Both the position numbers and the translations under genes were made by a program. Of a DNA stretch of 64,000 nucleotides, positions 53,578 through 59,445 are shown in pieces (within the stretch, counting starts at the first letter, position 1; each line of letters begins with the position of its first letter). The DNA is from Oculina patagonica (taxonomy: Eukaryota): contig NW_027558470.1 in the NCBI RefSeq assembly GCF_052425735.1, positions 1 to 64,000 on the forward strand, written 5' to 3'. Below the pieces are notes generated by a model. That model saw only the letters and a list, made by a program, of their open reading frames with translations, did no database searches and was not told where the DNA came from.

Positions 53578-54363
53578 TCACTCTTGAATCCAATTGCGAG
53601 GTTTCTGCCAAACACGGGGCTTAGAATAACCTTTTCCTCGCTGTCTAGGGTAGAGGTTTATGAGTTGTTGATACAATTTGTTGCGCCGACGTAGCGAATC
53701 TTCTCGAGCTTGGACGCGTTTCCTGTGCTCCTCTTCCTTGCCCATGATGAGTTGATTCAACCAAAAGGGTGGATCCGAATGGTTCAAAAACTCGTCTTGC
53801 TCCTTGATGGTTTGCACGTTGCCCTCCACGATCTGCCAATTTCGGTCGGCTTTCTTGATTTTTTCCTCGTCCTCCGTGCGGAGGGCTTGCTCCATCTCTT
53901 GCTTGGCCTGTTGCCTATACCATTCAAGATCCTTGTCCAATTTGTCGTAGTGGTCAAGCACTTCCTGAGGCGACCGGAGGTTGGCGTACCACATCGCAGG
54001 GATGATTTTTGATTTTTCTTCTTTCTCTGGAGGAGGAAGAGGAGGACCTGCTATTTTTTTCGTTGGGGCAATCCGTTTTAGGCTGTTGGGTTGAAGTCGT
54101 TGCAGTTGACGTTGTAGGTGAAAGTAATGGCTGCTGTCGACACCATCCCCTGGTAGGGATGCAGGCACGCCTTGTCCTTCGACCTGTTTCATGTCGTTCA
54201 TGAGTTTCCTCATGCGATCCACGTGAGGGGCATTGACCAATCGATCCACCACCAAGCGTCGTTGCCAAAATTGATCCATGTTGTCTTGGGCGACCTGACC
54301 TCCTGTTTGATCGCTTGAGGGTTTAGGGATCAAGATCATCTCTTGGGCATATTTTTCGCTCAT
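53578..54363 (-). CDS. Polinton hypothetical protein, 261 aa, coiled-coil
   Basis: Intact ORF, ATGA overlap with the upstream gene; QTGG and QRGKG motifs. Confidence 0.75.
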   Translation of the reverse strand: MSEKYAQEMILIPKPSSDQTGGQVAQDNMDQFWQRRLVVDRLVNAPHVDRMRKLMNDMKQVEGQGVPASLPGDGVDSSHYFHLQRQLQRLQPNSLKRIAPTKKIAGPPLPPPEKEEKSKIIPAMWYANLRSPQEVLDHYDKLDKDLEWYRQQAKQEMEQALRTEDEEKIKKADRNWQIVEGNVQTIKEQDEFLNHSDPPFWLNQLIMGKEEEHRKRVQAREDSLRRRNKLYQQLINLYPRQRGKGYSKPRVWQKPRNWIQE

Positions 54364-54941
54364 GTTTCCAAAGCTTTCAAACCAGCCCGCAGAAACGGGA
54401 GAAGACGTGCTCCCAAGGCAAGTAAGAGGGCTCGCCGTTCGTACAAAGGTGTGGTTAGTCCACTCAAACGTCTTATCTCTCTTATATGCTTTTTCAAGGG
54501 AAGTTTTATCTGGGACGGTATCGGGATCACACCATCGTACAAGTTGCGTATCACGTCGGTCAGGGCACGTAGTTGGTCATTGCTGGCTTCGTGAATTTCT
54601 CGTCGCCATGTGGCACCATCCCCACTAACCAAGTTGAGTAGAAAAGGTTGGTGAGCTGCCACGCGCCACGCACCACTGCCCGTTTGTTTCTTCTTTTTTG
54701 ATGTCACCACTCCGCCTAGCAGAGCACCCAGACCTGCCAAAGGTAGTAAGCCGGCAGCCAACAATCCCTTGGTACCCATTTTACGTTTGAGTTTTCCGTA
54801 GGCACTTCCTACTTTGTTGCCCGAGGAACGGGCTTTAGCAGGACGTGTAAACCCTCGATTAGCTCGCTTGACTGCTACCGATGAAGTGGAAAAGTAACGA
54901 TTGGTGGGAGTACGTCGGAAGGCTTGTAACGGAGGTGCCAT
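54360..54941 (-). CDS. Basic putative virion core/membrane-active protein, 193 aa
   Basis: K/R-rich N-terminus, hydrophobic GLLAAGLLPLAGLGALLGG, QTGSG, then a helical QLRALTDVIRNLYDGVIPI..LKKH..IRRL domain of a kind recalled from Polintons. Confidence 0.75.
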   Translation of the reverse strand: MAPPLQAFRRTPTNRYFSTSSVAVKRANRGFTRPAKARSSGNKVGSAYGKLKRKMGTKGLLAAGLLPLAGLGALLGGVVTSKKKKQTGSGAWRVAAHQPFLLNLVSGDGATWRREIHEASNDQLRALTDVIRNLYDGVIPIPSQIKLPLKKHIREIRRLSGLTTPLYERRALLLALGARLLPFLRAGLKALET

Positions 54942-54990
54942 GGTTCATTAATAAACCTTCCAGATGCAGCTTCTTTATATCCTTTTTTTC

Positions 54991-55377
54991 TCACTGCTGT
55001 AGACCAGAAAGCAGTGGTTTGAGCACCAGCGGAGCTAAGGCCATGCCTGCCATTGCAGCCAGAGGTCCCAATCCTCCCTGTTGTGATTTTTGTTTACAGC
55101 GTTTCATTTTCTTCCTGATTCCTCCACCTTTCTGTTTGGATCGTGGTATGCGAAGATAAGTGGACGGTGGTAAATGATTAGGCAAACCAATCATCTGCGA
55201 GTTGCCCGGTAAACTAAACTTTCCACCGCCTTGACCCGTCAAGCCTGGTACCATGCTGTTCAACACATTGCTAGCCATGTCGGTCACGATGGGAGCCAAC
55301 GAGAACATGGCTAGTTGCTGAGCAAAAGGGCCGAGCCCTCCTTCCTGACGTCGACGTTTTCGTCTTACAGCTGGCAT
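54991..55377 (-). CDS. Putative core precursor, 128 aa, four QxGG sites
   Basis: RRKRRRQEGG, QGGG, QKGG and QQGG separate basic and hydrophobic segments. Confidence 0.75.
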   Translation of the reverse strand: MPAVRRKRRRQEGGLGPFAQQLAMFSLAPIVTDMASNVLNSMVPGLTGQGGGKFSLPGNSQMIGLPNHLPPSTYLRIPRSKQKGGGIRKKMKRCKQKSQQGGLGPLAAMAGMALAPLVLKPLLSGLQQ

Positions 55378-57250: not shown

Positions 57251-58617
57251 AAGGGAATTGGACCTTGCACTGTACCACGATTGTCGACTTGCAGCAGACT
57301 TTCATCTGTATTATAGAAAAACAGAGCTTGGAGGGTAGGATTTCCACTACTGAAGGTCAGTCGGACATTGACCAGCATACGTAACAAGGGGGTGCTGGAT
57401 TCTCCTCCATCTTGGACTGCCGTCAGATCAAAGGGGACCATGAAGTAACCTTGGTCAAAGGTGTCTGGATTCAGCAGGTAAGCATCTCGTTTGCGTTTGC
57501 CCGAAGCATTCATCAGCAAATCGAAGATCTCGTACTTATCTTGCAGAGATAAGCTGGCTTTGGGAACGGGTACGCCATTGGCAGTGCATTCCACTTGGAT
57601 TCCATTCTGGGGAGTGAAATCGAATGGATTCTTTCCAAAGTGTCCTTGATAACGTTCGTCGTCCACCAACACCAACCAAAACAACCGGGGCGATCGTCCT
57701 CGGAACACGTCGTTGATGTCTATTTGCGTTTGATTGGCTGTCAACTGATAGTTGTCACAACGCATCCGTCGGAAGGGGAAGGTCATCGGGTTGACGACAG
57801 TGGTCTTCTCCACTTGTTCTTCCATGTACTGCATGATGTCTTTCACAGGTACGCGATAGAACACGCGTACAAAGGATTTGTTCACCATCACTTCAAAGGA
57901 CACTTTGTCAGAGGAGGTGGCTGCAGTTCCATCACCATTGTCTTTGTACTTCTTGGCCATCAGGGTAAACTCCGGGTTGTTGAATTCAATGTCAAACTCC
58001 ACTTTGGTGTTGGGAGGTACATTCTGGTCGACTTGAGTGAAATTGCTGGGCATGGGACAGACGTTGAACTCATATTCACCCGTGGTATTCACCATGACTC
58101 GTTGACGGGAGATACCACCGGCATTCATCTTGGCTGCTTCGTCTAGTTTTCCTCCCCACTTGTCCATTTGACCAGCCACATCCCGGTACCACCCTTGACG
58201 CTTCAGCTTGCTCTTTTCATCCCAGGGATCAGACTCCAACAGGGTTCGAAAATACTCTCGATAGGCTAAATTTACCCCTGAGGCAGATTCCGTTTCGGCA
58301 TTATTGACTTTGCAACGCACTTGTCGAATGCAACTGTAGCCAAAGTTATTCACTGGTCCCACGATGAGGTTGGACGTATTGTTATGATAGGCTAGGGCTT
58401 TGGTGTTACCCTCTTTAAACTTCACTCGCAGATGCAGTTCCATTTCTCGAGGACAAAAAGGATAGGGGCGATCGTCGATGCGAAACTGCAATGGGGTGGA
58501 CGAATGCGTCAAGGGTTTGATGTCCTCAAACTGCCACTTGTACTCGGTGGCATCGATCTTCCGTTGCGGTCGGTAGTCGTACTGACCTTTGTCGGCCTGT
58601 AAACTCAAGGACTCCAT
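57247..58617 (-). CDS. Major capsid protein (double jelly-roll, hexon-like)
   Basis: 456 aa, beta-rich; PVNNFGYSCIRQV, AYREYF..LL, GWY.D, NPF.F, YFMVPFDLT motifs; next to the protease. Confidence 0.85.
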   Translation of the reverse strand: MESLSLQADKGQYDYRPQRKIDATEYKWQFEDIKPLTHSSTPLQFRIDDRPYPFCPREMELHLRVKFKEGNTKALAYHNNTSNLIVGPVNNFGYSCIRQVRCKVNNAETESASGVNLAYREYFRTLLESDPWDEKSKLKRQGWYRDVAGQMDKWGGKLDEAAKMNAGGISRQRVMVNTTGEYEFNVCPMPSNFTQVDQNVPPNTKVEFDIEFNNPEFTLMAKKYKDNGDGTAATSSDKVSFEVMVNKSFVRVFYRVPVKDIMQYMEEQVEKTTVVNPMTFPFRRMRCDNYQLTANQTQIDINDVFRGRSPRLFWLVLVDDERYQGHFGKNPFDFTPQNGIQVECTANGVPVPKASLSLQDKYEIFDLLMNASGKRKRDAYLLNPDTFDQGYFMVPFDLTAVQDGGESSTPLLRMLVNVRLTFSSGNPTLQALFFYNTDESLLQVDNRGTVQGPIPL

Positions 58618-58671
58618 GGCGAGGAACTGAACTCAAATGGCACAAGTGTGTTGCCTTTATATCTTTTTTTC

Positions 58672-59445
58672 CTAAGGCAAGCCTTGAAAACAGTGCTGTC
58701 CCGGTCGTCGACGTCGACCCATGCCTACTTGTGGACCAGGAATGATTTCTGGCAACACACCAACGTTACGTCCACCTTGTCGGCGAAACAGTCGATTCAA
58801 TGTCGTGGAGGCACCCGTGATGACTTTGGGACGCTTTCTCTTTCCACTTCCTTTTTGATTCTTGAGTAAGCTAGGCATCAGTCTCAACAGCGAGAGGAAC
58901 CCTCCTTCCTGATAGGGTTCAGTGCCGGATCGATAGGTATCATTGCCAGTTCCACCCAGTTGCTTGACTAAACTTGGAATCAACCCCAAGAGAGGAAGAA
59001 TACCGCCTTGTTGACCTGCAACTTTATCCCCCAATGTGTCCAGGGCTTGACCTACAAATGGAGACACGAGTTCCATGGCCTTTTTTTGCGCCAGATCGGA
59101 TTGGATGGCTTTGCCGGCTCCTAACCTGGCCGCCTTGGCACCTGCCTTACCCAGACCTTTGATCATTTGCCAGGCCACTTCGTCAAAGCCATACCCTCCT
59201 TCTTGCTGTCGCTTCTTCTTCTTTTTCTTGACGGGTTGTTCGGTGTCTTGGCAGTAGGACTGACGAAATCGCTTGGCAGCCTTACAGGCCACTCCTTTGC
59301 CCAAAGAGGTGGCCTCTTGACCTGCCAGGGCCCACAGCGGTGACCACCCCCCTTCTTGATACGCAGGGGTGCCTTGGTCGTAGAAAGTACCTCCTCCTCC
59401 CACTTGCACCCACTGAGATTGGGCGAATCGTTTCTTGACGGGCAT
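58672..59445 (-). CDS. Putative polyprotein core/membrane-lytic precursor, 257 aa, eight QxGG/QxGxG sites
   Basis: QVGG, QEGG x3, QQGG, QLGG, QKGSG and QVGMG flank amphipathic and basic peptides. Confidence 0.75.
   Translation of the reverse strand: MPVKKRFAQSQWVQVGGGGTFYDQGTPAYQEGGWSPLWALAGQEATSLGKGVACKAAKRFRQSYCQDTEQPVKKKKKKRQQEGGYGFDEVAWQMIKGLGKAGAKAARLGAGKAIQSDLAQKKAMELVSPFVGQALDTLGDKVAGQQGGILPLLGLIPSLVKQLGGTGNDTYRSGTEPYQEGGFLSLLRLMPSLLKNQKGSGKRKRPKVITGASTTLNRLFRRQGGRNVGVLPEIIPGPQVGMGRRRRPGQHCFQGLP

Follow-up and report, generated by a model that had tools for sequence, protein, structure and literature searches.

Putative maturation sites of an adenain-like protease in the core proteins of a Polinton from Oculina patagonica

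Polinton virions have not yet been observed (PMC10748475), and the substrates of the Polinton "maturation protease" are unnamed in the literature searched. One Polinton lies in a 64,000-nucleotide stretch of the Oculina patagonica genome (NCBI RefSeq assembly GCF_052425735.1, contig NW_027558470.1, positions 1 to 64,000 of the forward strand; the window), to which all positions refer and past whose right end the element runs. Its small core proteins carry many Q-x-G-G and Q-x-G-x-G motifs, raising the question of whether these are the sites that the element's own protease cuts. They probably are: the motifs read as maturation sites of the Polinton's adenain-like protease, and cutting there would yield basic and hydrophobic pieces.

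In the proposed scheme, the protease would cut QxGG^X and QxGx^G (^ marking the cut) in internal particle precursors, freeing basic DNA-binding pieces together with hydrophobic helices of the protein X/VI type. The last fragment of a 257-amino-acid (aa) protein would then activate the protease in the manner of adenovirus pVIc. That cleavage takes place, that it does so in particles, and that some of the helices attack membranes at entry would follow by analogy with adenovirus and mavirus.

A two-form motif in the small proteins

Five small open reading frames (ORFs) of the element hold, by translation, 17 overlapping motif positions that amount to 16 QxGG/QxGxG sites: 8 in the 257-aa ORF, 4 in the 128-aa ORF (one of them the double QQGGLG), 2 in the 261-aa ORF, and 1 each in the 193-aa and 167-aa ORFs. 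QxGG alone occurs 6 times in the 257-aa ORF against 0.59 expected and 4 times in the 128-aa ORF against 0.20 expected, numbers that none of 5000 composition shuffles reached in either case. The ATPase, protease, integrase, 765-aa, and 184-aa ORFs have no site, and the major capsid protein (QDGGE) and the polymerase have one each. The initial annotation had counted about 16 motifs in five small ORFs, 8 and 4 of them in the 257-aa and 128-aa ORFs, and had described them as almost absent from the enzymes; translation and shuffles bear out both statements. The 8 sites of the 257-aa protein are not independent, because several fall within YQEGG repeat units whose number varies among homologues.

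Relatives were drawn from 20 loci of this genome and the best 80 of 108 metagenome loci found by protease pattern; scans of viral contigs with the protease found no locus. Whether relatives keep the motif had been named beforehand as one of the checks that could overturn the cleavage reading, and they do keep it. A site lies between the two capsid genes in 48 of the 54 loci that have both, a count by position alone that is cleaner than counts by protein class but includes near-identical copies. Homologues of the 257-aa protein carry at least two sites in 59 of 59 cases, with up to 8-11 sites per precursor. Classes were set by BLAST to references that include this element's own proteins, which makes the following counts partly circular: after an 80% identity redundancy filter, the class encoded before the major capsid gene has 93 sites (31 of 32 proteins with a site; shuffle mean 7.4, maximum 14), a family of about 108 aa has 29 (27 of 32; mean 1.1, maximum 5), and the family of the 261-aa protein has 11 (7 of 38; mean 1.7, maximum 5), whereas the control classes hold none in the 71 proteases, 2 across 48 ATPases, 1 across 38 integrases, 2 across 52 presumed minor capsids, and 5 across 65 major capsids, where 5.9 were expected.

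Of 105 additional homologues of the ~108-aa family, 82 have a site. In most other Polintons, it stands at the C-terminal end of the domain and is followed by a protein X-like hydrophobic helix, whereas in this element's clade it stands before the conserved domain, not after it. Every synonymous Gln and Gly codon is in use at the sites, and the signal therefore lies at the protein level. Polymerase ORFs are weakly enriched, with 17 sites in 14 of 52 (shuffle mean 6.6, maximum 15), two of the 17 coming from a misclassified small ORF. Several families have a Q-x-G-G near the polymerase N-terminus (residue 130 in this element, and related loci). A site in this position possibly removes a leader, as in adenovirus pTP.

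The homologous site of the ~108-aa family reads QKGGF, QSGGF, QRGGN, QRGSG, QKGEG, QHGKG, or QSGAG, depending on the lineage. Across 177 distinct QxG contexts, a second Gly occupies P1 alone in 59 and P1' alone in 78; 9 contexts have Gly at both positions and 31 at neither (Fisher p 1e-14, for related sequences that are not independent). As a sequence pattern, this either-or matches both the rule of adenain (xGG^X or xGx^G) and that of the mavirus protease (GG^X or GX^G; PMC6048507). Adenain cuts (M/I/L)xGG^X and (M/I/L)xGx^G, occasionally with Gln or Asn at P4 (PMC4246237); Gln at P4 therefore lies within known chemistry. The new point in these predicted sites is Gln as the dominant P4 residue, whereas in adenain it marks a minor site. 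The initial annotation had this adenain prefer Gln at P4, which holds in so far as Gln is the rule in the sites, although it does not amount to new chemistry (PMC4246237). A fixed P4 with GG^X or GX^G, the substrate pattern of an adenain-like protease, is thus seen on the substrate side, through motif statistics.

Other lineages pair the same geometry with other P4 residues. PLA2X-type Polinton proteins (P0368, P0369, P0371-P0374) have Lys at P4 in 22 of 46 sites (3.2-fold), and a Lys-P4 site also precedes a protein X-like helix in this type. Two linked loci likewise have Lys at P4 (L130:7907-8515 and L131:2922-3509), L131 having no Gln site in its listed ORFs. In larger phospholipase polyproteins (P0376-P0393), P4 is Leu, Met, or Gln in 60, 56, and 30 of 258 sites, respectively. 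This small sample of six PLA2X-type proteins, two loci, and a third set suggests that P4 differs by lineage.

The protease and its candidate activator

A profile search with the protease returns African swine fever virus S273R (E 2e-13) and adenain (E 1e-11) as top matches; a single-sequence PDB search found nothing. In an alignment of 137 sequences, His53, Gln96, and Cys103 are invariant and Asp69 is kept in at least 90%. The structural model (predicted local distance difference test score, pLDDT, 91) matches adenain at Z 15-16 with a root-mean-square deviation of about 3 over 154-160 residues, ahead of the next family at Z 11.6 and SENPs at Z 8-9. A catalytic triad and oxyanion Gln on an adenain fold are the marks of a clan CE maturation protease, and the modelled enzyme is adenain-like with its catalytic set intact, in agreement with the initial annotation, which had called it an adenain. 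The aligned Polinton proteases also share a Gln-x-Cys (Gln168 in 67%, Cys170 in 58%) that follows a low-confidence linker and lies at 56675-56745 here.

The adenain activator pVIc is an 11-residue basic peptide with a Cys-Phe end that bonds to Cys104 (PMC4246237). The 257-aa protein ends in QVGM^GRRRRPGQHCFQGLP, that is, in a site, a basic stretch, and a His-Cys-Phe (HCF) tail, and a linked locus, L050, has the same tail. Among 42 aligned sequences, picked for having this end, Q239, G243, H251, F253, G255, and P257 are invariant down to 38% identity. Cys84 of the protease precedes the oxyanion Gln by 12 residues and adenain Cys104 does so by 11, an offset of one position. Of the 11 top protease relatives aligned, 7 have Cys84; it is missing from two families in which the corresponding protein has no Cys at its end. 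Complex prediction of the protease with the last 32 residues of the 257-aa protein gave a weak pass, 0.48 against 0.02 for the best control, with contact agreement of at least 65% and partner pLDDT of at least 40. On the same scale, 51 of 78 solved pairs and 2 of 108 mismatched pairs came up to the pass mark, and scores of 0.60 or less belonged to only 5 of the 78 solved pairs but to all 4 mismatches that passed.

The last fragment of the 257-aa protein is thus put forward tentatively, at somewhat less than an even chance, as a pVIc-like protease activator, and it is the least certain part of the scheme. Several observations speak against it. The protease Cys84 and the tail Cys co-occur in one clade only, which is not independent co-variation. 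The folded partner held the cut site and the tail together, and the interface is not given. Structures of adenain with pVIc are solved, and the complex score may reflect substrate docking or memory, not cofactor binding. Neither pre-capsid protein family has a Pfam or PDB match indicating protein VI homology, and profile comparison of the 257-aa family with the commoner protein at the same gene position finds no likeness (probability 0.7%). A search of the ESM Atlas with the 257-aa protein gave only unnamed clusters under 0.9. In most relatives, among them L066, L078, L084, L089, L103, L108, L111, L125, L051, and L029, the pre-capsid protein finishes in a long basic tail with D-I-F-x at its terminus, often behind a last QxGxG site. 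The D-I-F-x tail is a possible Cys-less counterpart of the HCF tail.

Predicted pieces and competing explanations

The predicted fragments of this element are basic and hydrophobic by turns. The initial annotation had singled out three segments as temporin-like amphipathic peptides; each does stand directly after a site, as claimed, with net charges of +1, +3, and +1. The first 13 residues of two of them have hydrophobicities of 1.06 and 0.91 and hydrophobic moments of 0.49 and 0.59, measured against 95th percentiles of 0.76 (hydrophobicity) and 0.50 (moment) over 3229 windows of the element's proteins. The third, LGPLAAMAGMALA, combines a hydrophobic character with a low moment (0.20). In relatives, strongly hydrophobic 14-mers make up 60 of 144 post-site segments versus 15 of 142 pre-site segments, and the median post-site moment is 0.29 versus a background of 0.28. 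By these measures, only a subset of post-site segments is amphipathic, including two of the three quoted peptides; its clear members reach moments of 0.5-0.67, as does the helix that follows the second site in the common pre-capsid protein. The claim of amphipathicity therefore survives for two peptides and fails for LGPLAAMAGMALA and for relatives at large.

Temporins come from a secreted precursor with a signal peptide and have demonstrated antimicrobial activity. A Pfam search of the small proteins matched no antimicrobial-peptide family, and the temporin resemblance is one of composition only. It is better read as a likeness to the known hydrophobic helices of the protein X/VI type, because PMC8502044 and 10.1101/341131 already draw that likeness. 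Four of 23 members of the ~108-aa family match Pfam Adeno_PX, the best at E 0.061 and all below cut-off; this element's own small proteins have no Adeno_PX match. In other Polinton families of this genome, a QxGxG or QxGG precedes a parvovirus-type phospholipase domain by about 18 residues (L035:2881-3234, homologues P0315-P0375), with Met-x-Gly-x-Gly in its place in some homologues. Membrane lysis by the pieces is plausible by analogy with protein VI and the mavirus helix. The initial annotation had taken the maturation scheme to imply real virions; the predicted sites are compatible with virions but do not demonstrate them. The broader proposal that polyproteins mature into DNA-condensing and membrane-lytic, antimicrobial pieces is favored by conserved sites in small basic proteins, but the post-site segments, which are not unusually amphipathic, do not favor its lytic part.

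These properties leave considerable room, a little under an even chance, for a reading in which the protease cuts the sites but the hydrophobic pieces are structural, lining the capsid or condensing the core as the C-terminal part of pre-mu would, and are not membrane-lytic. Hydrophobic segments without unusual amphipathicity, the low net charges of the quoted peptides, and the weak Adeno_PX matches are all consistent with it, as is the description of pre-mu as DNA-condensing (PMC7998265). The clearly amphipathic subset is not, and the site directly before a phospholipase domain in other families points to a role in entry.

The cleavage reading can also be extended to a full adenovirus-style maturation in animal Polintons, which as a complete package is rather unlikely. 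It would combine a pVIc-like switch (HCF tail with partner Cys here, basic D-I-F tail in most relatives) with a lineage P4 code (Gln here, Lys in the PLA2X type, Leu/Met in others) that separates co-resident elements. It would further involve the release of membrane-lytic helices, DNA-condensing peptides, a phospholipase domain, and a polymerase leader, and maybe the stripping of host SUMO.

It is improbable that the motifs are instead flexible linkers or short binding motifs, such as capsid-cavity anchors, that stay uncut. Gly-rich motifs between basic and hydrophobic blocks, with a copy number that varies through duplication, could suggest this, and what supports cleavage is itself sequence and model. 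A linker, however, would not fix Gln two places before the first Gly, nor would it swap GG for GxG while shunning both-or-neither. That other lineages repeat this geometry but have Lys or Leu/Met in place of Gln is also what a protease-defined site predicts.

SUMO ends in Gln-Thr-Gly-Gly. The sites could mimic this C-terminus and be cut by host SUMO proteases, or the Gln preference could serve mainly to remove host SUMO, but both ideas are very improbable. Adenain, a relative of Ulp1/SENP, cleaves ubiquitin and ISG15 conjugates as well (PMC7464072), and SENPs do appear in the fold search; over half of the sites, however, have the QxGxG form, unlike a di-Gly end, and the element has its own protease, far nearer adenain than SENPs. 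Host SUMO was looked for and not located. A side activity of the protease on SUMO is conceivable. As a separate observation, host C11:19.2-19.35 Mb and 21.6-21.8 Mb hold large clusters of divergent tandem ubiquitin-like repeats. Finally, the enrichment could be a side effect of Gly/Gln-rich composition or of repeats at the DNA level, given that Gly makes up 14-16% of the 257-aa and 128-aa ORFs and that some sites lie in duplicated units. This is refuted by shuffles that never come as high, fully degenerate codons, and single sites kept in Gly-poor proteins that are 20-40% identical to each other.

Several points weigh against the preferred reading, in which the element's protease cuts at these motifs. 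Cleavage is likely on a case built wholly from sequence and model, and the enzyme-side preference for Gln is read from the substrates only. The pre-capsid interval has no site in 6 of the 54 loci, two of them without an ORF there. The comparison has no protease-less Polinton as a negative control. The partial circularity of the class counts, the near-identical copies in the positional count, and the background-level moments after the sites belong here as well.

If it holds, the cleavage code would offer a direct way to ask whether Polintons make virions. The conserved site map gives exact predicted N-termini for host-tissue proteomics, and their detection would be molecular evidence of particle maturation. 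The map also assigns putative roles to several unannotated Polinton genes, suggests that a peptide-activated protease is older than adenoviruses, and provides, in these clan CE proteases, a natural series whose P4 preferences apparently differ.

The element and comparison with known systems

Terminal inverted repeats of 243 bp and a length of 19,402 bp, within the 13-25 kb of Polintons, together with an rve integrase, a packaging ATPase (Pfam match below cut-off), a protease, and a double jelly-roll capsid protein, mark the element as a Polinton (Table 1). Its insertion is recent, because the two terminal repeats are identical. At 52-54 kb, G+C content climbs from roughly 0.37 to roughly 0.50. 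A clean target-site duplication (5-8 bp expected) was not found at the ends of this copy; the copy on C11 has CCCTC on both sides. All genes lie on the minus strand, in the order polymerase, 158-aa ORF, integrase, presumed minor capsid, 257-aa ORF, major capsid, protease, and ATPase, followed by the 167-, 128-, 193-, 261-, and 184-aa ORFs.

Table 1. Features of the Polinton, with positions in the window unless marked otherwise
Feature	Position	Strand	Remarks
Polinton element	52366 to contig position 71767		19,402 bp; starts with AGTAGTAG
Left terminal inverted repeat	52366..52608	+	Starts with AGTAGTAG; 243 bp identical to right repeat
184-aa ORF	52943-53497	-	No site
261-aa ORF	53578..54363	-	QTGG at residue 19 and QRGKG at 241, one near each end
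193-aa ORF	54360..54941	-	N-terminal part basic and hydrophobic; QTGSG at 86; then conserved ~108-aa helical domain
128-aa ORF	54991..55377	-	4 sites; predicted pieces basic and hydrophobic in turn
167-aa Arg-rich ORF	55413..55916	-	Single site QKGG at 69; C-terminal end hydrophobic
A32-like packaging ATPase	55938..56633	-	No site; Pox_A32 E 0.004, below cut-off; position kept in related loci
Clan CE cysteine protease	56672..57244	-	190 aa; His53, Asp69, Gln96, Cys103
Major capsid protein, double jelly-roll	57247..58617	-	Isolated QDGGE inside fold; without motif-rich C-terminal tail
257-aa polyprotein-like ORF	58672..59445	-	8 sites; between presumed minor capsid and major capsid genes
Last site and tail of 257-aa ORF	58675..58731	-	QVGM^GRRRRPGQHCFQGLP; candidate pVIc-like protease activator
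765-aa presumed minor capsid (penton) gene	59445..61742	-	No Gln site; label from position and family conservation
rve integrase with chromodomain	61735..62886	-	No site
1451-aa polymerase ORF, 3' end	63604..64000	-	QRGGF at residue 130 (past end of window), after N-terminal zinc-finger-like repeats

The major capsid protein matches iridovirus and Sputnik capsids (Foldseek E 1e-15), and the presumed minor capsid has no match in Pfam or PDB profile searches. The 1451-aa ORF is presumably the polymerase, from its size, its position, and the usual Polinton anatomy. In the 184-aa ORF, we take the acidic IDLEG motif to resemble a DEDD exonuclease, without Pfam support; similar ORFs were found in other Polinton families. 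Related ORFs at the C10, C1187, L050, and L057 loci retain both terminal sites of the 261-aa ORF, and the L050 homologue of the 128-aa ORF also bears sites.

The host genome (529-Mb assembly) has five further near-identical copies of the element and 66 protease matches in total, from several Polinton families. The five copies (contigs C2, C4, C11, and C12) have proteases 97-99% identical to this one, and some have split capsid, ATPase, or polymerase frames. A gene from another Polinton family of this genome has stony corals as its named relatives. Across 52300-64000, three runs of a single study contribute 31 polyA reads on the element, every one of them minus-strand, with at least 90% likeness and a depth below 1. 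They reflect at most low-level transcription of this family, possibly from any close copy, and not particles. A small-RNA run yielded 0 reads, which is uninformative, and none of the runs listed as carrying the element is recorded as RNA. Elsewhere in the window, at 37400-39800 and in the 10044-10858 region, there are host satellite-like repeats with 126-173 bp units and a near-perfect 400-bp inverted repeat with a 15-bp spacer.

The literature searched holds no description of the QxGG/QxGxG motif or of Polinton cleavage sites, and an earlier mention elsewhere is possible. No Polinton cleavage motif occurs in the available portions of PMC8502044, PMC11071296, PMC11296320, PMC10748475, PMC11131425, PMC4642659, and 10.64898/2026.10.13.758929, and the string "cleav" is absent from the main text of PMC8502044 and the searched portion of its supplement. 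The closest published observations concern the putative products. Starrett et al. report that these elements encode proteins resembling cupiennin and melittin, and also protein X-like domains (PMC8502044), and the adintovirus genes Cupiennin, GasderminX, and PLA2X, with their likeness to membrane-active peptides and to pX/pVI, are proposed there as core proteins. These genes correspond to the families here by published description, not by sequence. Welch et al. link them to adomavirus LO6, which was found cleaved in virions at (MIL)xGxG and L(LR)GG-type motifs (10.1101/341131).

The mavirus/Sputnik protease MVP shares with the predicted system GG^X and GX^G sites, basic fragments, and a predicted helix (PMC6048507). 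The mavirus cuts free these fragments and the helix, which is predicted to be amphipathic and has been proposed to disrupt endosomes (PMC6048507). The mavirus sites are part of the major capsid protein, in its C-terminal domain, whereas those of the Polinton lie in separate small genes and its capsid lacks such a tail; the available text of PMC6048507 gives no P4 rule.

Adenovirus maturation by adenain (AVP, clan CE), which acts on pVI, pVII, pre-mu/pX, and pTP with pVIc as activator, agrees with the Polinton in fold, catalytic set, and the GG^X/GX^G rule, and its substrates, like the predicted ones here, are small precursors of basic and hydrophobic character. The tail of the 257-aa protein is a candidate counterpart of pVIc, being basic, C-terminal, and provided with Cys-Phe behind a GX^G site, and the N-terminal site of the polymerase recalls pTP processing (PMC4246237). 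The Polinton differs in its dominant Gln at P4, in its up to 8-11 sites per precursor, in having no detectable sequence match to protein VI, in a tail that runs four residues past Cys-Phe, and in being integrated and carrying an integrase. Taken together, the predicted sites probably represent the adenovirus/virophage maturation scheme in a new form, with a Gln-centred, probably lineage-specific code and a candidate peptide activator.

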